A stretch of 64,000 nucleotides of DNA from a virus (lineage: Duplodnaviria > Caudoviricetes). Where the stretch lies: positions 64,001 through 128,000 of IMG/VR virus record IMGVR_UViG_3300017700_000931. The stretch is one strand, 5' to 3'. The notes beneath the pieces were generated by a model. The model was not told the DNA's origin. It did not search any database and saw only the letters and a program-made list of their open reading frames with translations. Positions 2,894 through 59,345 of the stretch are shown one piece after another (the stretch's first letter is position 1; each line of letters begins with the position of its first letter). The translations under genes and the position numbers were made by a program.

Positions 2894-3154
2894 TTACCAA
2901 ATATTGGCTATAATTTCAGTATTTATTATTTCAATTTTTAATTTGGCTCTAAATTTAATACTACCCTTGGTGTGTGGATTTTCTGGTGTTTCTTTAGTAG
3001 AGAATCCAACTCCGGGAGACACATCAATATGATTAACATAATGCGTCAGACCCATATGTTTAATCACCCACATTGGTATCGTATTATCTTCGAGATTTTT
3101 CTTATTAAAGTGAAAAATTATTTCTCGTCTTTTTGTGTCATCAATGATTAACAT
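2894..3154 (-). CDS. Hypothetical protein
   Basis: 86-aa ORF whose start overlaps the Pth2-like stop (coupled). Confidence 0.7.
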   Translation of the reverse strand: MLIIDDTKRREIIFHFNKKNLEDNTIPMWVIKHMGLTHYVNHIDVSPGVGFSTKETPENPHTKGSIKFRAKLKIEIINTEIIANIW

Positions 3155-3501
3155 GATAATACCCCTTTCCCCATTAATGGTAATGAACTAGTTAATTTAC
3201 GACTAGCCTCAGATGGGGCCAATGCAATTGCTGTTAATTCATTATTGATATCCGGTTCCCTAAATGGTGTTATCTTAATATAACGTTCAGCTGCTTTTAG
3301 AATGAATTGTTTTAACTCATCTTCATTAGCTACGGTTAGGAAAATTAAATAATTGGAATTTGTGTGCCAGTCTTTGGCCTCCGTTGGATGTCCATGTTGG
3401 AAATCGATTGCAGCATGAGCTGCTTGTACTGCTTGATAAGCAAGTGGTAAATCACGTCTAGTGATGACAATTAATTTGTTATTTTCAATCTAATTTTTCA
3501 T
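3148..3501 (-). CDS. Peptidyl-tRNA hydrolase PTH2-family protein with an in-frame TAG at codon 4
   Basis: Not in ORF track. MKN*IENNKLIVITRRDLPLAYQAVQAAHAAIDF...WHTNSNYLIFLTVANEDEL...FREPDINNELTAIALAP fits the PTH2 pattern (K.V.V.R.DL, Q.AHA, V..E.EL, T.LA..P). TAG at 3490-3492. Confidence 0.82.
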
Positions 3502-3522: not shown

Positions 3523-3588
3523 TGCTCTTGGAGAGAATCGAACTCTCTGACACGGGTTTTAGAGGCCACCGTCACATCCTACAAGAAC
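3523..3588 (-). tRNA. Non-canonical 66-nt tRNA-like RNA with a putative CUA (amber) anticodon
   Basis: Acceptor GTTCTTG/CAAGAGC, perfect T arm GAGAG-TTCGATT-CTCTC, loop CTCTAAA; D arm reduced or absent and anticodon stem bulged. Confidence 0.65.
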
Positions 3589-5027: not shown

Positions 5028-5052
5028 GAAAAGGACCCATTGGGTCCTTTTC
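5028..5052. terminator. Hairpin terminator
   Basis: GAAAAGGACCCA-T-TGGGTCCTTTTC right after the RF1-like stop. Confidence 0.7.
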
Positions 5053-5054
5053 AA

Positions 5055-5733
5055 TTATTTTAAAAGCTGAATTTTTCCTCTTAGGATATCTTTCAATTTG
5101 GCAGTTTTATTAGTAATATGGTCAACTACGATATCATCCTTTACACGATATGTTCTACGTTTATCACCACGATTACCAACCCCAATCTGATTTCTACGTT
5201 CTTTAACCTCTTCTTGGTCATGTCCGGTTTTATAAAACGTATTAACACGTAGTGTTATTTCCTTAAAGGCTGCTTCTTTATTTTTATGTTGGTCTCGGCC
5301 ATCACGAACCACTCTGATACCTGTTGCATTATGTGTCATGATAACACACGAATCAGTAGTATTTTTATGTTGACCGCCACTTCCAGTTCCTCTAGTAAAT
5401 TCAATACGGACTTCATCGTGTCTGATTTCGACATCCTTATATTGTGGTTTATCTAAAATTGCTACTGTGATTGATGAAGTTTGAATACGACCCTTCTTTT
5501 CTGTTGGAGGGATACGTTGCCACCTATGGTTGCCTACTTCATTGTTAAATATTTTTTTTACACCAGACCCGCTAAAGGCATAGACAGACAAATCCTTCTC
5601 TGTCTTCAACTAACATTCAGTTAATGTTGTTAATCTTCGCTGTTTTGATGTAGATATCTCTCATATCTCCCACCAATAACTTAGCATCTTTGCCACCTTC
5701 GGCATCTCTGATTTCTAAATAAATCGTTTCCAT
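5055..5733 (-). CDS. prfA-like: RF1-like class I peptide release factor lacking domain 1; needs TGA readthrough (5617-5619) and a +1 frameshift at CTT TAG C (5577-5571); about 225 aa
   Basis: Frame 1 gives LEIRDAEGGKDAKLLVGDMRDIY (cf. RF1 LEVRAGTGGDEAALFAGDL). The +1 frame gives SGSGV...EVGNHRWQRIPPTEKKGRIQTSSITVA (PxT motif) and TGSGGQHKN (GGQ). Confidence 0.88.
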
Positions 5734-5765: not shown

Positions 5766-5789
5766 AAAATGGAACCGAAGTTCCATTTT
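5766..5789. terminator. Hairpin terminator closing the ncRNA/tRNA transcript
   Basis: AAAATGGAAC-cgaa-GTTCCATTTT with an A tract. Confidence 0.65.
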
Positions 5790-5856: not shown

Positions 5857-6720
5857 GGGGATGTGAGGGCTTTCTCCTCAAACTACGTATTACACATAGC
5901 ATCCCCAGTTAAGTCGAGCCTTGTTCACAAATACATTCTGGTGGGAATGTATTTGAGTAGATGTGCTCACCCACCTCCTGACGAGGTCTGCATCGACTTA
6001 GTGGTTGTAATAGGACCTTCCCCTATAGAACACCATTAAAGATGTTTACAACCTTGTTTGAAAATGTGGGGGCTTTCTCCCCAAACCATACATCTCTAGT
6101 ATAGCATCTCCATTTGTAGCGGGGGGTGGAATTGAACCACCGACCTCAAGGTTATGAGCCTTGCGAGCTACCACTGCTCTACCCCGCAATATCTTGTTCT
6201 TCGTAATGGAGCTTCCACCATTAACCCAGCTCTTAAACTGGCGAAGAATTTTTACGCTGAAATTCAAACATTTCATTGTAATATCTGACAGGTTAGTTTT
6301 TTTAACGCTTTAGAATTTGAGTCTAATGTTTTAAATGTTTGCTGTATCTAACCATTTACGCTGTGGCCCGTCGAAGATTCAACTTCAATCTATATTGCTA
6401 TAGAACGGACCTTGTGTGGGGAAGAAGGGGCTCTAACCCTTTCTACCTTTCAGTGTGCTCAAATAATATTAGTTACCTAATGAGTACTTTCCTCGTTTAC
6501 ACTACTTCCCCGTATAATAATTTTGTCCAGAATGATGGTTTAAGCTTTTTTACATGTGCTTAGCACCATGGCAGTTATTCAATTCGGATTACCGTGGGGG
6601 AACCTATGTACTAAAACCCCTTTTCTTCTTAACTGTAGATTTGTTTTTGTTTTACGGTTTGCCGTAATCATTCTTCTGACAATTTTTTAATCTCAATAAA
6701 TAAAAGAACGCTTTCTTTGT
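5857..6720 (-). ncRNA. Large modular structured RNA with embedded tRNA-Met (GOLLD/ROOL-like architecture or new family)
   Basis: No credible ORF; GC-richer than flanks; eight or more closed helical domains joined by short A/C-rich linkers between promoter 6734 and terminator 5766. Confidence 0.7.
6117..6188 (-). tRNA. tRNA-Met(CAT), initiator-like
   Basis: TGCGGGG/CCCCGCT with a 1:72 mismatch, anticodon arm CAAGG-CTCATAA-CCTTG, T-loop GTTCAATT; only two G-C pairs next to the anticodon loop. Confidence 0.9.
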
Positions 6721-7333: not shown

Positions 7334-7555
7334 TTACATTGATTTTTGTGGGTCTCCGTCTAAAACTTCAACAATAATAAAAATACCATGTTTTTTTAGT
7401 ATGTGATGAACAACAAAAACTACCTTATAATATTTTTTATCTTCCAAATAAATAAATTCTCCAGAACGGGGAATATGTTTGATTTTGATTAGTGGGATAA
7501 TCGTCTTCCAATCCTTATCTAAGATTGAAACACTATATCTATTGAATAGCCCCAT
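7334..7555 (-). CDS. Hypothetical protein
   Basis: 73-aa ORF overlapping the peptidase stop. Confidence 0.65.
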   Translation of the reverse strand: MGLFNRYSVSILDKDWKTIIPLIKIKHIPRSGEFIYLEDKKYYKVVFVVHHILKKHGIFIIVEVLDGDPQKSM

Positions 7556-8351
7556 AATTGTAGGTTTTATTACCCAATTCTATTATTGTGCTGGCACCAA
7601 GATTGATGGCTTTTTGAACATAACTTAATACTACGAATTCATGACTAGAATGCATATCCATGTATCCGGCAAAATAATTTATACAACAAACAGGATAGTT
7701 TTTTTTCAATTCTTTGACATCTGTGAATGGGTCTCTAATATTTGGTGCCGACATGTTATAAACGTCCCAAGTTGGTTTTAATATTTTAGCGAATGCATCA
7801 TCAAATAACTCAATACCACCACAAACTCTTGAAATCCAATTATCGGTTGGTGCATCGAACTGAATAAAGTAACCAACATCTAATAACCATTCTTCTTTTT
7901 TAGCAAAAGCAGAACCTCGACAACCGATTTCCTCTTCAACAAAAAAGGCACCCTTGATTGTTTTAAAATTAAGAATTAATGATAATGCAATGAATATTCC
8001 GGCTTTGTCATCACCACCACAACCTGTATTAACTTCCATTCCATTTGGTTTGAATTTAGTGGCATATAAAATATCACCATATTCACCATTAATTTCTTTT
8101 ATATTCAATTTGGAGCTCGACTTAACCATCAATACTTGGTCACTGTGTACTGTATCCATATGTGCAACCACACAAGGGTAAGATTCACCATCGAGTAATT
8201 CACCTTTTTTCATGAATATATTACCCTTTTCATCTTGTTTGACATCAATATTATTATCGATAGCCCAATTAATTAAAAATTCTCTAACTGATTCCTCTTT
8301 AGTAGAACAGCTTGGTATTGATAATATTTCTTTCAGTAATTCCTTATTCAT
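7539..8351 (-). CDS. M20/M28-family zinc peptidase
   Basis: AHMDTV, GGDDKAG, EEIGCRGS, QFD and C-terminal H metal ligands; ends in TAG. Confidence 0.85.
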   Translation of the reverse strand: MNKELLKEILSIPSCSTKEESVREFLINWAIDNNIDVKQDEKGNIFMKKGELLDGESYPCVVAHMDTVHSDQVLMVKSSSKLNIKEINGEYGDILYATKFKPNGMEVNTGCGGDDKAGIFIALSLILNFKTIKGAFFVEEEIGCRGSAFAKKEEWLLDVGYFIQFDAPTDNWISRVCGGIELFDDAFAKILKPTWDVYNMSAPNIRDPFTDVKELKKNYPVCCINYFAGYMDMHSSHEFVVLSYVQKAINLGASTIIELGNKTYNYGAIQ

Positions 8352-8932: not shown

Positions 8933-9054
8933 CCTTAATTTGTTTAAAGATAAATACTCTGGAAAACAAAAAAAGCCCACCGAGTGTGAGCTTTTATGTC
9001 CTAGTTAAAGGTCCAATTTCTGACTTAGCGAATTTAAGCCAGAAGCAGTTTGCG

Positions 9055-9434
9055 TGGAGCTGGAGGGAGTCGAACCCTCGTCCTAATCTATTCTTCAATC
9101 ATTTTCTACGTGCTTAGTTCATTTTTTCTTTTCGAACAAAATATCAAATTTATTTACAACCCCATTTGCAAAGTTGCCCAGCCTTTTTATTTACATCACA
9201 GGTTAGGTCCTAGTGATGGGTTTCGTGAGTTTCCTCAGTTTTCCTATTGCATCAATTAGGCTGCAACAGCCTCTCCAGCAACAACTTCTACAGAAGCGTT
9301 AGCAAGGAAGTTTTCGGAAATATTGAAAATATTGCCATTTGAACTTTTGTAAAATATTGTTTTAACTGCTTATTCACATCGCAGTGCATGCTTACAATTT
9401 ACGACCATAGACAGTCAAATCCAAGGTCAGCCCC
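9055..9434 (-). ncRNA. ssrA: tmRNA
   Basis: 5' GGGGCTGACCTTGGATTTGAC and 3' GGGTTCGACTCCCTCCAGCTCCA form an Ala acceptor with G3-U70. Tag ORF 9336-9256: GNIFNISENFLANASVEVVAGEAVAA*. Confidence 0.95.
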
Positions 9435-9507: not shown

Positions 9508-10236
9508 TTATTTTTTTCTTTCAATAACATTATCAACAATACCATATGATACCGCTTCTTCTCCAGTTAACCACATATCTCTAGTTGCGTCATTTAAAAC
9601 CTCTTTTGGGTCTTTATCGCAATAAGAACCAAGCAATCTAAACAATTCATCATTGTATTTTTCTGCTTGTTGTTGGTTAATTCTAGTATCTTGTACGTTA
9701 CCTTGACTACCATGTGAAACTTGATGTAACATTACCTTTGAATGTGGTAAAATTAATCGTTTACCTTTGGTTCCATTACCCAATAAAATTGAACCCATTG
9801 ATGCGGCCATACCAGTACAAATAGTTGATACATCGCAATGAATATAATTCATAGTATCAACAATTGATAATCCTGACTTAACAGAACCACCCGGAGTGTC
9901 AACATACACTGTAATATCATCTTTTTTACCTAGACTTTCCAAATATAATAATTGGGCTTGGACCACGGTGCTCATTTGGTCATTCACTGGACCAGCTAGC
10001 CAAAGTGTTCTATCCATCATCAATCTCGAAAAGATATCAATCATGGTAACCTCTAATTTATTTGGCTCCGGCACGTATGGTGTCATTGAGGCACCAACAT
10101 TCAATGTATTCACATTGTTATAAAGTGAGTCTTGTAATTTTTCCCAATAATGGAATTGAATACCGGATACACCCATATGATTTATTGCAAAATTTTTAAA
10201 ATCTGCATACCAATCGTAATTTCCTACTGCGTTCAT
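9508..10236 (-). CDS. clpP: ATP-dependent Clp protease proteolytic subunit
   Basis: IFSRLMMDR, TPGGSV, GMAASMG (Ser), MLHQ (His), RDMWL (Asp). Confidence 0.95.
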   Translation of the reverse strand: MNAVGNYDWYADFKNFAINHMGVSGIQFHYWEKLQDSLYNNVNTLNVGASMTPYVPEPNKLEVTMIDIFSRLMMDRTLWLAGPVNDQMSTVVQAQLLYLESLGKKDDITVYVDTPGGSVKSGLSIVDTMNYIHCDVSTICTGMAASMGSILLGNGTKGKRLILPHSKVMLHQVSHGSQGNVQDTRINQQQAEKYNDELFRLLGSYCDKDPKEVLNDATRDMWLTGEEAVSYGIVDNVIERKK

Positions 10237-25432: not shown

Positions 25433-27772
25433 TCACCCTTTTTTTCTTTGAATTATCTTTTTAACTTCATCAATGGTTCTACCAGTTTTTTTGGCTACCT
25501 CGTAATATACTGCATCATCAGAAATAACAGAATCTTTCGTTTGTTTCAATTTAACCACCTTATCAACGGCACCAGTACTGCAACCACCATTTTGGGCCTT
25601 TTTATTGTTGTTTAATTTAGTACAATCGTCCAATTTGACAAAACCACCTTCTGGATAAGCGGTTGATGTAGTATTCACCGATTCCTTTATAGTCTTATCA
25701 ACAATCTTTCCCTTTGGATACATCGTTTTTTTACCAAATCTCATATTTGCTTTATCTTTGGCCCAGATTTTTGGTTGAACAAAAGACCCACTTGAAGCAG
25801 CTGTTGTTGTTTCCTCCACTTCATTTGGTTTAAGAGCTTCTTTAAGACCATCAAATACAATTGAATATAATTCGTCAAATACAGAATAGGCATCACGAAT
25901 TTTTTCAGATTCTTGATTGAAAATCAATTTATCTTTTTTTGTTTCTTTATTAAAAATATACAATAATTCACTATTGGAAATTTTACCATCTTCTCTTAAT
26001 AATGAAATAGAATACTCTAGTGTTTTTTCATTATCATTTTTATTAATGACTTTATCAATAATAAAAACACCTAACGCCGGGTGTTGAAAATTTTTGTATT
26101 TTAAATTACTCAATTTTTCATTTTCAGAATCATTACCTTCAACCTCACCAACAATTTTTTTCATTTCAGACGCTGGGTCATTCTTATTGATTGTTGTTGA
26201 TGAACCCATCGGTGCAACAAATGCTCCACTGGATGATGCTGTTGTTTCACTCAAGGATAAATTACTAAGTGTTGATATCAATTCTTGTTTTTTTGCTGGG
26301 TCACTAATATGTTTAACTAACGCCATCAATTCATCAATCATTTCTTGGTCAATTTCAACTAATTGTTTACCATTTTCATAATCAGAATAGCCTTTACCTA
26401 GCGATAAATTAGCATAGTTATCATTAACATAGGAATCTATGATATTACTATCCATTTCCCAATCCCCATATTCAACATCCATCATACCGTCTTCATCTCG
26501 ACCTATTGGTGTTTCATCACGACTAGCATAATTAGCGAATTCATTTTTATCAACTGTTTCAACATTAAAAACATAGTACTTACCATCCTTTTCAAAGATT
26601 GCATTTTCTTGATGCCACCATAGTAAATCTAATGGTCTATTTTGTGGGGTTATTCCCGGATTAGGTTCTTTTTGATTCCAAGGCGCACTAGGGTCTTCAT
26701 TAGCACCCATTGGATAGTTATCCTCCTCAATTGGTTTATCAGTTTCTGATTTTCTTCTTTTTAGTTCTTCAGCTCTTTTTTGTTTAATTTTAGAAGCGAT
26801 TGATTCAGGTGATGGTTTTGGACCTTCCTTCCTTTTCAATTGTTGTTGAAGATTTGTTTTGATTTTATCAGATGATTCCGCAATTTCTGGAACATACTCT
26901 TTGTATAATGCTTTTACATTATCGTAGAAATTTGGTTTTAATATTTTAATCAATTTTTTACCATTAATTAAATTATGACCAATCATCCCAATTTCAAACA
27001 TTTTTTTGGTTAAATCGTTTTTACTAACACCACGGTCTCTCCAAAATTTATTTATATGCTCATCAGTTGGGTCCGTTAAAAGTTCTTTAAGGAATTTTAT
27101 TACCTGTTGACCAAATTCAATGATATCTACTTGCGAAGCCGGATTACCCTTATTTTCATTAAAGGATTTAGTTGTTTTAATATTTTCTTTTTCAGTTTGA
27201 GGCTTAAAATCACCCCTAAGTGTATCTTCAAATTTTATATTGGCTTTAGGTATTGACCTACCAGCAGATTTAAAATTATTAGTTACCTTTGTTGATGGCC
27301 TCATTGGTTTTGGTGGCATTTTAAATTCATGTTCGTTGGATTCACCGACTGAATTAGTTGGGCATAGTTCTTTTGGGTTACCAATTAATTGAACTCCCAA
27401 TCCTTCACCTTCTTCTTTTACAATTTCTTCTTGAAGTTCTTTATTATAGAATCCTTTCGCATAAGCGGCACACATTTCTTTACCATTATTAAAATCACTA
27501 CTATCCTTTGAATATGGTTGCCAAGTTTTAGCCCTATCACTATAGAAACTTCTACCTAGATAAAAACCTTTTGGTGTTTTATACATCATGATATCACTCA
27601 CTGGCTCATTATCACGGCTCTTAGCGACCACTTCGAATTTCTCATCAATTCTATTTTCAAACAATCGATTATATTGTTCACTAGTAATTTTTACCAACTT
27701 TTTTTTTGGTAATTGTTCTTCTAGACTTTGTAACATCACAATTTGTGATTCAGTTAATTTAATTTTTCCCAT
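25433..27772 (-). CDS. Large late hypothetical protein with repeated ETT(T)A(A)SS(S)GxFVxP motifs
   Basis: Start trimmed to MGKIKLTE; two similar motifs near 26212-26255 and 25772-25820. Confidence 0.78.
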   Translation of the reverse strand: MGKIKLTESQIVMLQSLEEQLPKKKLVKITSEQYNRLFENRIDEKFEVVAKSRDNEPVSDIMMYKTPKGFYLGRSFYSDRAKTWQPYSKDSSDFNNGKEMCAAYAKGFYNKELQEEIVKEEGEGLGVQLIGNPKELCPTNSVGESNEHEFKMPPKPMRPSTKVTNNFKSAGRSIPKANIKFEDTLRGDFKPQTEKENIKTTKSFNENKGNPASQVDIIEFGQQVIKFLKELLTDPTDEHINKFWRDRGVSKNDLTKKMFEIGMIGHNLINGKKLIKILKPNFYDNVKALYKEYVPEIAESSDKIKTNLQQQLKRKEGPKPSPESIASKIKQKRAEELKRRKSETDKPIEEDNYPMGANEDPSAPWNQKEPNPGITPQNRPLDLLWWHQENAIFEKDGKYYVFNVETVDKNEFANYASRDETPIGRDEDGMMDVEYGDWEMDSNIIDSYVNDNYANLSLGKGYSDYENGKQLVEIDQEMIDELMALVKHISDPAKKQELISTLSNLSLSETTASSSGAFVAPMGSSTTINKNDPASEMKKIVGEVEGNDSENEKLSNLKYKNFQHPALGVFIIDKVINKNDNEKTLEYSISLLREDGKISNSELLYIFNKETKKDKLIFNQESEKIRDAYSVFDELYSIVFDGLKEALKPNEVEETTTAASSGSFVQPKIWAKDKANMRFGKKTMYPKGKIVDKTIKESVNTTSTAYPEGGFVKLDDCTKLNNNKKAQNGGCSTGAVDKVVKLKQTKDSVISDDAVYYEVAKKTGRTIDEVKKIIQRKKG

Positions 27773-55014: not shown

Positions 55015-58000
55015 GCATTAGTACTTATAATTAGTGATGCTGATGTACAGTTTTGTGCATCTCTAGCTTGGAACGAATATCCCGTACCACAAGCTAAACC
55101 TGTGAATACCGGACTGGCTTGCCATGTTCCAGCTCCTATTCTAAATTGATATGGTCCACCATTACCACCAGAACCACTCACAGTAACAGATGTTTGTGAA
55201 GTACTACTAGGTGCTACCGTAACAACTGTTGGTTGTGTTAATGAAACAATCAAGTTTGGAGCAGTACAAAGGTGTTGTGTATCTCTCGCTGCAATAGTAT
55301 GTGAACCAGAAGCTAAACCAGTAAATATATGAGATGTTGATATACCAATCCATGGTCCACCATCAATCCTAACTTGATATGTACCAAAACCAATAGCTGG
55401 ATTACCACCACTAACACTAACAGTAATTTGTCCATTTGAACCACCATTACATGTAACATTGGTTTTAGATACAAGAGTAATTAATAATACTGGTGGTTCA
55501 AGAACTTCAACAGTAAAATCTTTAATACAACCATTCGAATCGGTTACGGTTGCAGTATATATTCCAGCCGGATATGCGAGTGTACCAATTGGTTGTAATG
55601 TTGGCCCCGTATAAACAATTGGACTTGGTGTTGGTCCGTCCCAAGAATAAACAGAATTATAAGGTGGTGTACCACCTGCAAGACCTGTTACTGATATTAC
55701 ACCATTCGCAGCACCATTACATGTTATATGTTGTGGTGTAATATTTCCAGTTATAGCTGTCGGTTGGGTAATCGTAAATACTTGTGACGCTGTTTGACCA
55801 ATATTATCAGTCATAGTTACTGTGTAGGTACCAGAATCTAATCCGGTTTGTAATGTTTGATTATTTAATGGATAACCAGCCAGTGGTGGTACTACTGTTG
55901 TAACTGAAGTTACTGGTGCAACACCTGTTATGTAATTAAATTGTATCGAACCATTTGATGCCCCATTACATGTGATATTTGATGATGTACCACTCATAGT
56001 TAATGCTGGTGGACTAGTTATAATAACACCGCTAGTTGAACACGTTGATGATTGTGATGCACTATCTGTTGTAGTTACAACATATGTTCCAGTTGGTAAT
56101 CCAGCAAACATATCTGTTGGACCAACAATACCTGAATGTGTCACTGTTACTGGTCCAACAATTTCAGTTGTGTATGGACCTATTCCACCACCTATACCAA
56201 CAATTTGAATTGTACCGTCAGATGCACCATTTGATGAAACTGGTGTTGCCGATGCAAAACAATTGACTGCGAATGGTTGGCCAACATTAAATGTTGTTGT
56301 TGCTTGTAAACCTTCAGCATCAGTAACAGTTACCGTATATGTTCCAGCTGGAACACCTGTTATATCTTCACTAGTGGCACCATTAGACCAAACATAAGTG
56401 TATGGACCTGTTCCACCAACAATTGTAACATCAACACTACCATCTGACCCACCATATGTTGTCACATCGGTAATGACTCCAGTAATTAAAAAATCATCTT
56501 CTTCTATGATTGAACAATTTTCAAAATACTTAGTATTCATTTTATCTAAACCTGTTTTATTTGGTGTTAAACCAAAATAAAAATAATACGAGCCACCCCA
56601 AGGTTGTTTAATTAATTTATTTTGTATATCTCTAAACAATTCATATGAACTAATAGCACCACTATCAAAGAGTGCATGTCTTGATGCTGTAACAGTATCA
56701 CTTAAATCTATACCAACGTATGGATTATTTAATTGGGTAAATGCATCTCTGATGAATAAATTATCAATATCACAATTATTTATTTTAACATCTGCTTCAC
56801 CCGCTCCACCACCAACTGGAACACAACCTAATGGTGTTGATTCATCAGTTCTTAATTCATCAAGACCGACACCAATCTCACATTGTCTTTTAATGTTTGT
56901 ACAATTTAATGCAGTTGTGGTCAACCCTAAACAACTAATATCAAAAAATAATGATGGTGTATTACTTGCTAATCCCGGAGAGTCATACCCACTCGTTACA
57001 AGCTCACCAGTTGTATCATCATATTCATTTAATAATTCTGGTGCCTTATAAGATGTTGGTACTAAGAATGGTTGAATTTTTGGTTTTCCTTGCCAATCAC
57101 ATTCAAACATTGCACCTAAATCAATAATGTCGGTCGCAAATAATTTATATCCGGCTTCATGAGTAAATGCTGCATAATATAATTCATCTTGGTATGATTT
57201 AACCAAACCATCTCTAATCAATGCTGACTCACCAGTTTTAACACCATCAGCAGTACAACTATCGACTAACCAATTATTTTGACATTTATTATCAGGATTT
57301 CCATTATTATCTCCATCAACACCACCACTAAAATCATCACAATCGAACTCACAGAATTTCTCTTTATCTTTTCTCTTCTTTTTGTATTTTAACAGGAATG
57401 AATATAATGAACCATTTACCCAATCATTATAAAAATCAAATTCCCAAACATTTAATGCTTCAGCAAGAGTAAGTGATATACAAAAAGACCACCCAGCATC
57501 TCCAATTGGTACTGTTTCTAGTGTTCCATGTCCAGTATGCCCATCATTAGGCCAATGTTTCATTGGTGGTTTATCTGTTGCCGCCCAAGGTAATGGTTTA
57601 CCACCTTGAAAACAACCCGGACCATATTCTTCATCTTGACATGATAATGTGATACATGGAATGTATGGGATAATATCTTTACAATCACAATCATCACACT
57701 CATCTTCACAATCACCAATACAAGCATTTTTTCTACATTCTTTTCTACTATCAGCATCTAACGGATACTTCAACGCACAGGCTATCTTACCGACAAAAAA
57801 TACGACCTCACAAATAACAATTAGAACAGCATTTAATATAAAAATAATCGCATTTATGAGAGTAATAATAATCGTATTAATTAATATAACGATAAATGAA
57901 ATTATTTTTATGATAATACAAAGTATTGAAAATAGTGGGTTGATATCTGAATCCATTCTATTGAATGGAAATGGATTATGTAAACCAGTACAGTCATCAA

Positions 58001-59345
58001 CATCTTTTATCCCCAACATTGCTCTAATACTAACATCTGGGCTCAAAGTACCAACTTTTTCAAGACCACCCATGGTTTGAAATCTTGGTATGAAATTTTT
58101 AACTGAATAAATTTTATTCCAATACATATCCTTAAAGTGTTTGTCACCATTAAGTCCATGACCAGTAGATTCATCAAATGAATAATCAGTTTCATTATAA
58201 TTATTTGGATTATGCGGTACTAAGTATTTGGCTCTGGTTCTTATTTTCCCTTCACCACCAGTAACATCCATACCAATTTTAAATCTAACACTAGCTCTAG
58301 TTGGTATTCCTCTAGTTGAATCCTCTGTTGGTACCAAATCACCATATTCGTTAGTAATCATATAATCAAGATTCATGGGTACTTGATAAGCCCACGCACC
58401 ATTATCATCGATTACCCTACCACCATCTACATCAAACCTTTGATTTTTTCCATCAAGGTCTTTTCTGAGCATTTCAATCGTTCCAGCTCCAGCAACAGTT
58501 TCGCAAAGGCTACCTAATTTTTTTCTAGGTTTACATCTTTTATTTATCGAGTTTTTTTCATTGTCACCAAAGATTCCACCCATAAAAATAGCAGATGGTT
58601 TTAATTCATGTTTTAAATCAACATCCAATCTTGTAATACCAATAGAACATTGGTCCTCATCTCCCCAAAAAGGTCTTATGTTTACACTTGTTTGTTGATT
58701 TTTAATTTGATTTAATTTATTCAAATCTTCACCACCCTTGAATTTATTTGATGTTTCAAAAGAACTTCTTGGTTGGCCAACTGCCATAAAATCATATGGT
58801 CTTTGTGAATAAATTCCTATATCGGATAAATCACAATCAATGTTTATAAAATGTGTTCCGGTTGGGACTCCGAAAATCATATAATCACCAGCTGCATTTG
58901 TAATTGCAGAATACTTGTAATATTTACAATGAATATCTAACTTAAGGTCGTTATCTAATATCTCTCTTTTAGTGGCTAATGTACCAACTGGTGTGTGACA
59001 ATCAAATTGAGATGAATTTGGTAATAAATTGTATCTTTTACCATCTGGGTCTTTATCATTTATTGTTTCGAATGGATATAAATCTCTAATTTCTTCATCT
59101 TGTAAATCTTCTTCATCGATTGGGACGAAAATCGATACTTTTGCATTAGGAACACCAACACCATTGTTCATGATAACTCTACCAACAACAACACCATAAT
59201 CAGAACAAAAACGCCTATAAACCTCCTCTTGCGAAATACTCAATGAAAGTATTTCAAGAAAATCAAAACTTTGTTCTAACTTAACTTTTAAATGTTTCCC
59301 ACCAAATTCTTGTGGGTTGGTTCTAATCCTAACTCTATTTGACAT
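55008..59345 (-). CDS. 1445-aa virion protein: N-terminal carboxypeptidase-regulatory-like domain, hydrophobic segment, Cys-rich region, C-terminal SprB repeats
   Basis: GRVIMNNGVGVPNAKVSIF; repeated GGT.PYTY.WSNG..TGL.AGTYTVTVTD.GC units from about 56490 to the end. Confidence 0.82.
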   Translation of the reverse strand: MSNRVRIRTNPQEFGGKHLKVKLEQSFDFLEILSLSISQEEVYRRFCSDYGVVVGRVIMNNGVGVPNAKVSIFVPIDEEDLQDEEIRDLYPFETINDKDPDGKRYNLLPNSSQFDCHTPVGTLATKREILDNDLKLDIHCKYYKYSAITNAAGDYMIFGVPTGTHFINIDCDLSDIGIYSQRPYDFMAVGQPRSSFETSNKFKGGEDLNKLNQIKNQQTSVNIRPFWGDEDQCSIGITRLDVDLKHELKPSAIFMGGIFGDNEKNSINKRCKPRKKLGSLCETVAGAGTIEMLRKDLDGKNQRFDVDGGRVIDDNGAWAYQVPMNLDYMITNEYGDLVPTEDSTRGIPTRASVRFKIGMDVTGGEGKIRTRAKYLVPHNPNNYNETDYSFDESTGHGLNGDKHFKDMYWNKIYSVKNFIPRFQTMGGLEKVGTLSPDVSIRAMLGIKDVDDCTGLHNPFPFNRMDSDINPLFSILCIIIKIISFIVILINTIIITLINAIIFILNAVLIVICEVVFFVGKIACALKYPLDADSRKECRKNACIGDCEDECDDCDCKDIIPYIPCITLSCQDEEYGPGCFQGGKPLPWAATDKPPMKHWPNDGHTGHGTLETVPIGDAGWSFCISLTLAEALNVWEFDFYNDWVNGSLYSFLLKYKKKRKDKEKFCEFDCDDFSGGVDGDNNGNPDNKCQNNWLVDSCTADGVKTGESALIRDGLVKSYQDELYYAAFTHEAGYKLFATDIIDLGAMFECDWQGKPKIQPFLVPTSYKAPELLNEYDDTTGELVTSGYDSPGLASNTPSLFFDISCLGLTTTALNCTNIKRQCEIGVGLDELRTDESTPLGCVPVGGGAGEADVKINNCDIDNLFIRDAFTQLNNPYVGIDLSDTVTASRHALFDSGAISSYELFRDIQNKLIKQPWGGSYYFYFGLTPNKTGLDKMNTKYFENCSIIEEDDFLITGVITDVTTYGGSDGSVDVTIVGGTGPYTYVWSNGATSEDITGVPAGTYTVTVTDAEGLQATTTFNVGQPFAVNCFASATPVSSNGASDGTIQIVGIGGGIGPYTTEIVGPVTVTHSGIVGPTDMFAGLPTGTYVVTTTDSASQSSTCSTSGVIITSPPALTMSGTSSNITCNGASNGSIQFNYITGVAPVTSVTTVVPPLAGYPLNNQTLQTGLDSGTYTVTMTDNIGQTASQVFTITQPTAITGNITPQHITCNGAANGVISVTGLAGGTPPYNSVYSWDGPTPSPIVYTGPTLQPIGTLAYPAGIYTATVTDSNGCIKDFTVEVLEPPVLLITLVSKTNVTCNGGSNGQITVSVSGGNPAIGFGTYQVRIDGGPWIGISTSHIFTGLASGSHTIAARDTQHLCTAPNLIVSLTQPTVVTVAPSSTSQTSVTVSGSGGNGGPYQFRIGAGTWQASPVFTGLACGTGYSFQARDAQNCTSASLIISTNAC

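Follow-up and report, generated by a model that had tools for sequence, protein, structure and literature searches.

An RF1-type release-factor gene of a large phage interrupted by a conserved in-frame UGA and a candidate CUU-UAG-C frameshift site

The stretch of DNA analyzed here, referred to as the window, comprises 64,000 nucleotides (bases 64001–128000) of a complete 362,532-bp virus record with terminal repeats (IMG/VR record IMGVR_UViG_3300017700_000931, Caudoviricetes), and all positions are given in window numbering. Its minus strand carries a gene for a release factor (RF) of bacterial RF1 type that is split twice, by an in-frame TGA at codon 39 and, fourteen codons further on, by the sequence CTT TAG C, past which the homology continues in the +1 frame. 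It is likely that the full-length factor requires two programmed recoding events on one mRNA, i.e., readthrough of UGA39 followed by a +1 slip at CUU-UAG-C. The current annotation of the gene is a 184-aa fragment only.

Anatomy of the gene and identity of its product

The preliminary description of this locus, made from the sequence without database searches, had placed the start codon of the gene at ATG 5733, the TGA at codon 39 and the CTT TAG C site at 5577–5571, and every one of these coordinates holds on the minus strand. The gene is laid out as follows:

5733–5731, minus strand: ATG start codon of the release-factor gene (0 frame), with RF homology E-I-R-x-A-E-G-G from codon 2–3
5620–5733, minus strand: codons 1–38, the beginning of RF domain 2 (0 frame); Pfam PCRF positions 101–141 match residues 3–43
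5619–5617, minus strand: in-frame TGA, codon 39, in the context AAC TGA ATG, a proposed leaky stop; found at the same codon in homologues and in three assemblies
5575–5616, minus strand: codons 40–53 (MLVEDREGFVCLCL), the 14 0-frame codons that separate the recoding sites; their translation is collinear with that of in-frame homologues (E-E-R-E-G-F-V-x-hydrophobic-x-L)
5571–5580, minus strand: shift cassette TGC CTT TAG C, with CTT at 5577–5575, TAG at 5574–5572 and C at 5571
5055–5573, minus strand: +1-frame open reading frame (ORF) of 172 codons plus TAA (5057–5055), beginning with AGC at 5573–5571 and holding the remainder of domain 2 and domains 3 and 4
5502–5510, minus strand: PPT tripeptide, the RF1-type PxT stop-codon recognition loop, aligned to PAT of E. 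coli RF1
5370–5378, minus strand: GGQ motif of peptidyl-tRNA hydrolysis within the Pfam RF-1 domain (GSGGQH vs GAGGQH of RF1)

The joined product has 225 amino acids and aligns to residues 111–340 of the 360 residues of E. coli RF1 with no gap at either recoding site. The join is equally gapless with respect to in-frame homologues, which bears out the proposal that the homology resumes in register in the +1 frame. In Pfam, the N-terminal piece lies on PCRF positions 101–141, spanning the TGA, and the C-terminal piece on PCRF positions 159–194 and on the RF-1 domain (E 5e-22). Domains 2–4 are kept, and domain 1 (~110 N-terminal residues) is absent. NCBIfam prfA models give the joined product 178–187 bits, compared with 94 bits for prfB and 75 bits for prfH; on the full-length (equivalog) RF1 model the match begins at position 105 of 347 and reaches 187 bits, the cut-off being 400. 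The PPT and GGQ motifs reported earlier are both present and aligned to E. coli RF1, and beside PPT the phage protein has the Q (WQR) and the T (QTS) that read the third base of the stop codon in RF1. By its sequence, the gene codes for an RF1-type phage release factor without domain 1, and it is the only gene with an RF-1 domain in the 362-kb genome.

Within codons 1–38, third codon positions of the 0 frame vary most among homologues, which identifies this frame as the coding frame. The region 5' of the ATG is A-rich, with an A at position −3 and without a Shine–Dalgarno (SD) sequence, and in this resembles other genes of the genome, where SD motifs are not enriched at starts (5% vs 4% at random positions) and upstream regions are A-rich as in Bacteroidota. 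An automatic ORF track had the gene begin at TTG 5609, which the preliminary description disputed in favor of ATG 5733. The TTG is indeed an artefact, since in 6 of the 19 homologues sharing this shift site the +1 frame offers no start codon (ATG, GTG or TTG) before the junction. An independent start of the +1 ORF was rejected on the same grounds, the +1-frame start codon not being conserved. In some members +1-frame stops lie only 3–5 codons upstream of the shift site; together with the six members lacking a start, this means that the second ORF cannot be started independently and that the shift takes place within the last few codons before the stop.

Conservation of the two interruptions among homologues

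Searches of GenBank phages with tblastn found the first relatives in the 485–735 kb phages of Al-Shayeb et al., where the genes have in-frame TGAs or, in LR745208, a classical GGAGGGGT CTT TGA C site. A protein search gave 335 relatives, pattern scans then took 80 loci from IMG/VR and 80 from metagenomes, and the classification covered 127 distinct homologous N-terminal regions, taken from contigs of phages and metagenomes. Class A (about 61 of the 127) stays in frame and has TGA at codons 39, 44 and/or 52; four of its members have TAG at codon 52. Class B, the type of the window (19 regions), has a +1 site at codon 54, in one case two codons earlier, and in five of its members, the window included, TGA39 and the UAG shift are combined. 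Class C (45 regions) has a +1 site at codon 38, where CTT is followed by TGA in 39, TAG in five and TAA in one. A PPT-type loop is found in nearly all members of all three classes. The median GC content of the contigs is 0.55 for class C and 0.33 for class B (32.7% for the genome of the window). In a maximum-likelihood tree of the C-terminal 170 residues, class C forms nearly one clade, and class B is scattered inside the class A clade.

Homologues that were uninterrupted, or broken at random positions, had been named beforehand as evidence of decay or assembly error. The interruptions lie at the same codons in dozens of homologues, and a single one of the 127 regions is uninterrupted; two more uninterrupted homologues, L004/LR756511 and P0086, are known beyond this set. 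The 225-aa proteins that appear uninterrupted in databases are gene calls made with translation table 4, in which W at the critical codons is TGA in the DNA. The 'with_TGA=W' translations P0004, P0006–P0049, L188 and L189, with W at codons 39 and 52, are gene-caller artefacts of this kind, and other public members are called as 160–186-aa fragments, so that genes of the family are at present either N-terminally truncated or wrongly translated in annotation.

A decaying pseudogene, or a stop and an extra T introduced by assembly or sequencing, is scarcely credible as an explanation. Errors and mutations often add one T to a run of TT, and the annotation of the gene as a fragment would fit; however, three independent Logan assemblies from different runs (ERR12082678, SRR10520202 and ERR12082741) are identical across TGA39 and CTTTAGC. 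The T that had been flagged as a possible error is present in all three, and two of them show differences only downstream, at positions synonymous in the +1 frame. Furthermore, the interruption of the same codons in diverged homologues leaves the other ~170 codons open and conserved, and synonymous variation is frame-specific on both sides of the site.

The 10-nt sequence TGY CTT TAG C is invariant in 17 of 18 distinct class B contexts, the remaining one having TGA, while its flanks are heavily diverged; the proteins bearing the cassette are 46–83% identical and derive from contigs of phages and metagenomes. In the rest of these genes, 18% of the Leu codons are CTT and 10.5% of the Ser codons are AGC, and among genuine TAG stops of the genome a following C occurs only once. 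Column entropy shows the 0-frame third position as the most variable phase until 9 nt before the stop, and the +1-frame third position past the cassette. The invariant cassette and the switch of codon phase at this point support the programmed +1 shift that had been proposed for CTT TAG C. Transcriptional slippage was considered and rejected: the T3 run is too short, and an A8 run lies beyond the 0-frame stop and is not conserved. This A8 run, at ~5552–5545 on the minus strand, belongs to the +1-frame coding region just past the shift site.

The preliminary description had also noted that no internal SD of the prfB type precedes the shift site of the window. This holds, in a genome that itself shows no SD use, and none of the 18 class B contexts has an SD-like motif before the site. 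In class C, an SD-like GGAGG is found 3 nt upstream of CTT in 41 of 44 contexts, which is the architecture of prfB. No conserved RNA structure was detected near the shift site, the alifold energies being equal to those of column-shuffled controls.

Among 80 distinct class A and B genes, the in-frame TGA is found at codon 39 in 31, at codon 44 in 27 and at codon 52 in 48, and it is nearly missing from the other N-terminal codons. In all 107 cases the TGA is followed by A or C; genuine TGA stops of the genome are mostly followed by T (15 of 27). A Leu codon after TGA is CTN in 41 of 41 cases (44% in the background; p 1.5e-15, with relatives counted as independent), and the codon before TGA prefers the synonym ending in C (AAC 17:1, GAC 9:0, CAC 16:4, with relatives again counted as independent). 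The recurrence of TGA at one codon in 31 of 80 genes, always with A or C next, agrees with the suggestion that the UGA is a functional signal. The residue at these codons is not constrained, since the alternatives are varied (V, C, Y at one; E, D at another; C, S, Q, K at the third). TGG never occurs at codons 39, 44 or 52 in the 80 genes, and a reading of TGA as a stand-in for Trp was rejected, the W of homologues deriving from table-4 calls. Selenocysteine was set aside as well, without a SECIS search; the TGAs occupy three variable positions, often two per gene, in a protein without a redox role.

Re-initiation at the AUG next to UGA39 would yield a product without residues 1–39 and remove the need for readthrough. 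In the window the TGA is directly followed by ATG, and a check of this route had been called for at the outset. The ATG is not conserved, however, other members with TGA39 having ACT, CTG, ATA, AAA or AGA at this place; codons 1–38 are conserved as protein and form part of RF domain 2; and the +1 shift would still be required. Re-initiation is, on this evidence, very improbable.

Several further members of the family deserve mention. Six loci (L054, L055, L060, L141, L143 and L156) have an in-frame TGA at codon 44 and an in-frame TAG (ATT TAG C) at codon 52, i.e., UGA and UAG gates without a frameshift. One phage contig (IMGVR_UViG_3300042502_001233, 362,018 bp) carries two release-factor loci ~3 kb apart (L044 and L065), and the uninterrupted homologue P0086 lies directly downstream of a phage IF3 gene (L190, 890–2181). 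Close relatives among bacterial and archaeal genome contigs are limited to three contigs of metagenome-assembled genomes (MAGs); other matches are at most ~47% identical and lie on bacterial MAG, plasmid or chromosomal contigs. The three contigs, assigned to Bacteroidetes, Methanobacterium and Aenigmatarchaeota (L194, L195 and L196), are 1.6–170 kb long and are probably mis-binned phage.

Genetic code, proposed mechanism and gene neighborhood

The code of the genome is the standard one. Neither in the window nor in the 362-kb genome do ORFs merge once TGA or TAG is treated as a sense codon, and the stops of the 252 ORFs of at least 150 codons are TAA in 204 (81%), TGA in 27 and TAG in 21. Ten other candidates for TGA-joined ORFs in the genome gave no Pfam match, a result that speaks neither for nor against recoding. 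ARAGORN finds 57 tRNA genes in the genome, none with a UCA or CUA anticodon; in LR756501, a 735-kb relative, it finds no suppressor tRNA either, the first 400 kb having been scanned. A change of code (table 4-like), in the phage or late in infection as in recoded gut phages, would make TGA a sense codon and leave only the frameshift as special. Phage RF1 genes do occur in the TGA-recoded Jade phages (Borges et al., 10.1101/2021.08.26.457843), many homologues have been translated with table 4 by gene callers, and phage suppressor tRNAs can evade detection. The stop usage and the tRNA complement just described point the other way, as does the position of TGA in the release-factor genes at three codons where TGG never occurs, and the RF1 gene of the Jade phages is itself written in the standard code. 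We therefore judge a change of code to be most unlikely.

Some of the tRNA genes are unusual. Two odd ones lie at c[25456-25530] and c[57930-58009] of the genome (G000), of which one has a 6-nt anticodon loop and one is an 80-nt tRNA-Trp(CCA) with a long extra arm. In LR756501 (c[204243-204333], c[228902-229090]) one tRNA is read by ARAGORN with a 4-base anticodon (ttac) and two are read with 2-base anticodons. A dedicated phage tRNA might thus perform the recoding, be it a tRNA-Leu that reads CUUU as a quadruplet or some unusual tRNA that reads UGA, in place of spontaneous slippage and near-cognate readthrough. The 57 tRNAs, among which are tRNA-Leu(AAG) and (GAG), the 80-nt tRNA-Trp(CCA) and the tRNA-like gene with the 6-nt loop, are in favor of this possibility, and so is the 4-base anticodon of the relative. 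However, neither an AAAG-type nor a UCA anticodon was found among the tRNAs of the genome, and it is the stop and its +4 base that are conserved, which is relevant to competition with release factors and not to quadruplet decoding. A dedicated tRNA appears improbable, if a little less so than re-initiation or a change of code.

The preferred reading, two programmed recoding events in series, would proceed as follows. At codon 39 the ribosome would decode UGA instead of terminating, most likely by means of a near-cognate tRNA in the leaky C-UGA-A context. Fourteen codons on, tRNA-Leu would be bound to CUU in the P site, with the weak stop UAG-C in the A site; the P-site tRNA would then re-pair from CUU to UUU (+1), and the next codon to be read would be AGC, leading into the main body of the protein. 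For the slip we infer this mechanism by analogy with prfB. Both events would compete with termination, so that a shortage of RF2 should increase the yield at the UGA, and a shortage of RF1, the phage factor included, should do so at the UAG. We infer near-cognate readthrough, the dependence on release-factor levels and the AND logic of the two gates, the effect of which would be that extra termination capacity is produced according to demand. The phage factor should read TAA, the terminator of 81% of the long ORFs of this phage.

Several points weigh against this scheme. The factor is RF1-type, and the UGA gate is for this reason not direct self-regulation; it is possible that UGA gates report RF2 load. 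In E. coli, RF2 is more abundant than RF1. UGA gates outnumber UAG gates family-wide, and simple autoregulation leaves the whole pattern unexplained. No homologue has TGG at the TGA codons, the W found there in databases being due to table-4 gene calls, and the statistics given above count related sequences as independent. Judged by comparison with prfB of E. coli, a slip that has neither an SD-like stimulator nor a conserved RNA structure may be inefficient. Finally, the scatter of class B on the C-terminal tree, where well-supported branches force at least seven changes, implies either repeated gain or loss of gates or recombination of a short N-terminal segment. Under either process, lineages seldom stay without a gate.

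The preliminary description regarded the gene as the RF1 mirror image of the RF2 switch. This stands in so far as a conserved UAG site is found in an RF1-type gene, but across the family UGA is the commonest gate, and most members are therefore not simple mirror-image autoregulators.

The main rival to demand-dependent recoding, which we consider unlikely but clearly more probable than the other alternatives, assumes that the signals are selected and act mainly as fixed attenuators, which would keep the amount of a possibly toxic release factor very low and constant without sensing RF1 or RF2. Over-produced RF2, and less so RF1, lowers the fitness of B. subtilis (PMC12421855), and output would be very low from a pair of consecutive leaky stops, or from a shift site that has no stimulator. 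Moreover, almost every member is blocked while the type of block varies, which fits selection for low output by any means. On the other hand, weak initiation or rare codons could serve this purpose, yet the blocks are always stops in contexts of weak termination (A or C at +4 in 107 of 107; TAG-C or TGA-C at shift sites), a design with release-factor-dependent output as in prfB.

Around the release-factor gene, the window contains the following elements:

9508–10236, minus strand: ClpP gene (Pfam E 6e-59)
9052–9434, minus strand: transfer-messenger RNA (tmRNA) gene, Rfam RF00023, 89.7 bits, adjoining the ClpP gene
7539–8351, minus strand: ORF with a weak, partial match to M42/M20 peptidases
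5766–5789, minus strand: terminator-like hairpin 33 nt upstream of the ATG, with a 10-bp stem followed by a T run
5028–5052, minus strand: terminator-like hairpin directly after the TAA, with an 11-bp stem followed by a T-rich tail
3523–3588, minus strand: tRNA-like element that lacks a D arm but has an acceptor stem and a perfect T arm (loop UUCGAUU); CUCUAAA may form its anticodon loop (anticodon CUA)
3148–3501, minus strand: ORF for a Pth2-like peptidyl-tRNA hydrolase (Pfam PTH2, 29.7 bits, cut-off 23), with an in-frame TAG at codon 4 (ATG AAA AAT TAG)

The hairpin upstream of the ATG marks the end of an upstream unit that holds tRNA-Met (6116–6188). With tmRNA, ClpP and the peptidase-like ORF within 4 kb of the release-factor gene, the region looks like a translation quality-control cluster. 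The Pth2-like ORF is a second stop-interrupted translation gene near the release-factor gene. The tRNA-like element at 3523–3588 is called by neither ARAGORN nor Rfam and its fold is no better than that of shuffled sequences (z −1.16); a role as amber suppressor is unproven.

A wider reading is put forward tentatively, with the balance somewhat against it. RF1-type factors of phages would, nearly as a rule, be sensors of termination capacity, with UGA gates for a shortage of host RF2 and UAG gates for a shortage of RF1 and the phage factor, the two being wired in series as an AND gate in the present gene. Together with tmRNA, ClpP and the amber-interrupted Pth2-like gene, it may form a stop-codon-gated module of rescue and termination that is switched on when release factors run out.

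Comparison with known systems

Textbooks present the programmed +1 frameshift of prfB as the example of a translation factor gauging its own activity, and this frameshift has been thought unique to RF2. In the survey of Prince et al. (2025), which covers more than 12,000 genomes, TAG occurs in 0 of 8,164 prfB motifs and prfA has no programmed shift (PMC12421855). Atkins et al. (2016) state that an in-frame UGA in RF2 genes and the UAG/RF1 counterpart were unknown, and cite only the Mimivirus case (PMC5009743). Huge-phage RF1, RF2 and tmRNA are listed by Al-Shayeb et al. with no mention of recoding, and Burroughs and Aravind do not mention phage release factors. In the literature searched we found neither a description of recoding in this phage release-factor family nor a UAG frameshift or in-frame stop in a bacterial-type release-factor gene. 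Relative to that literature, the putative UAG (amber) version of the RF2 frameshift switch in an RF1-type gene appears to be new.

The two precedents on which the preliminary description drew, the prfB switch and the combination of readthrough and frameshift in Mimivirus, are both confirmed by the published accounts (PMC12421855, PMC3521657). The class-I release factor gene of Mimivirus and Megavirus has two internal stops, one passed by readthrough and one by a frameshift (Jeudy et al. 2012, PMC3521657), and thus resembles the arrangement proposed here, in which a virus-encoded release factor is likewise made past two internal stops. It differs in that the factor is of the eRF1 type (eukaryotic/archaeal) and belongs to a virus of amoebae, in contrast to the bacterial RF1-type factor of a phage, and the two arrangements are not homologous.

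PrfH (RF-H) is a bacterial release-factor homologue that has no domain 1 and is paired with RtcB. The absence of the N-terminal domain 1 is common to PrfH and the phage protein. The latter, however, scores better on RF1 models (187 vs 75 bits), keeps the PxT loop and belongs to a genome in which RtcB was not found; membership in PrfH was rejected, the score of 74.8 bits being well below the cut-off of 166.65. The Jade phages, like the present one, carry an RF1 of their own. There, a standard-code RF1 gene forms part of a 'code change module' with a UGA suppressor tRNA and TrpRS in a recoded genome (Borges et al.), whereas here the genome uses the standard code and only the release-factor gene is interrupted.

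Class C (LR745208, ~45 distinct contigs) belongs to the same family of RF1-type factors without domain 1 and would likewise use a +1 slip on CTT beside a stop. Its site lies 16 codons further upstream, is SD-assisted and has mostly UGA, which an RF1-type factor should not read. The family thus offers a natural series: in-frame UGA gates, an SD-assisted UGA +1 site in phages of higher GC content (median 55%), and, in phages that like Bacteroidota have no SD sequences before their genes, a UAG +1 site that lacks an SD as well. The series lends itself to questions on the minimal requirements of a +1 site, on frameshifting by ribosomes that make no use of SD sequences, and on whether phages monitor the release-factor supply of the host.

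The closest parallel is prfB itself (CUU UGA C with an upstream SD; Craigen and Caskey; PMC12421855). In both cases a release-factor gene is split by CUU, a stop and C, and the +1 frame continues in register. Feedback is possible in both, the stop being of the kind for which the encoded class of factor is specific. The phage gene differs in having UAG in place of UGA (17 of 18 class B contexts), in encoding an RF1-type factor and in being carried by a phage. Its site lies at codon 53/54 in domain 2 instead of at about codon 26 in domain 1, no SD stimulator is found in class B (0 of 18), and a second gate, the in-frame UGA, precedes the shift site. The family supplies, in hundreds of natural variants, both cases that are missing from the prfA/prfB survey, i.e., a TAG site and a putative shift in an RF1-type gene.

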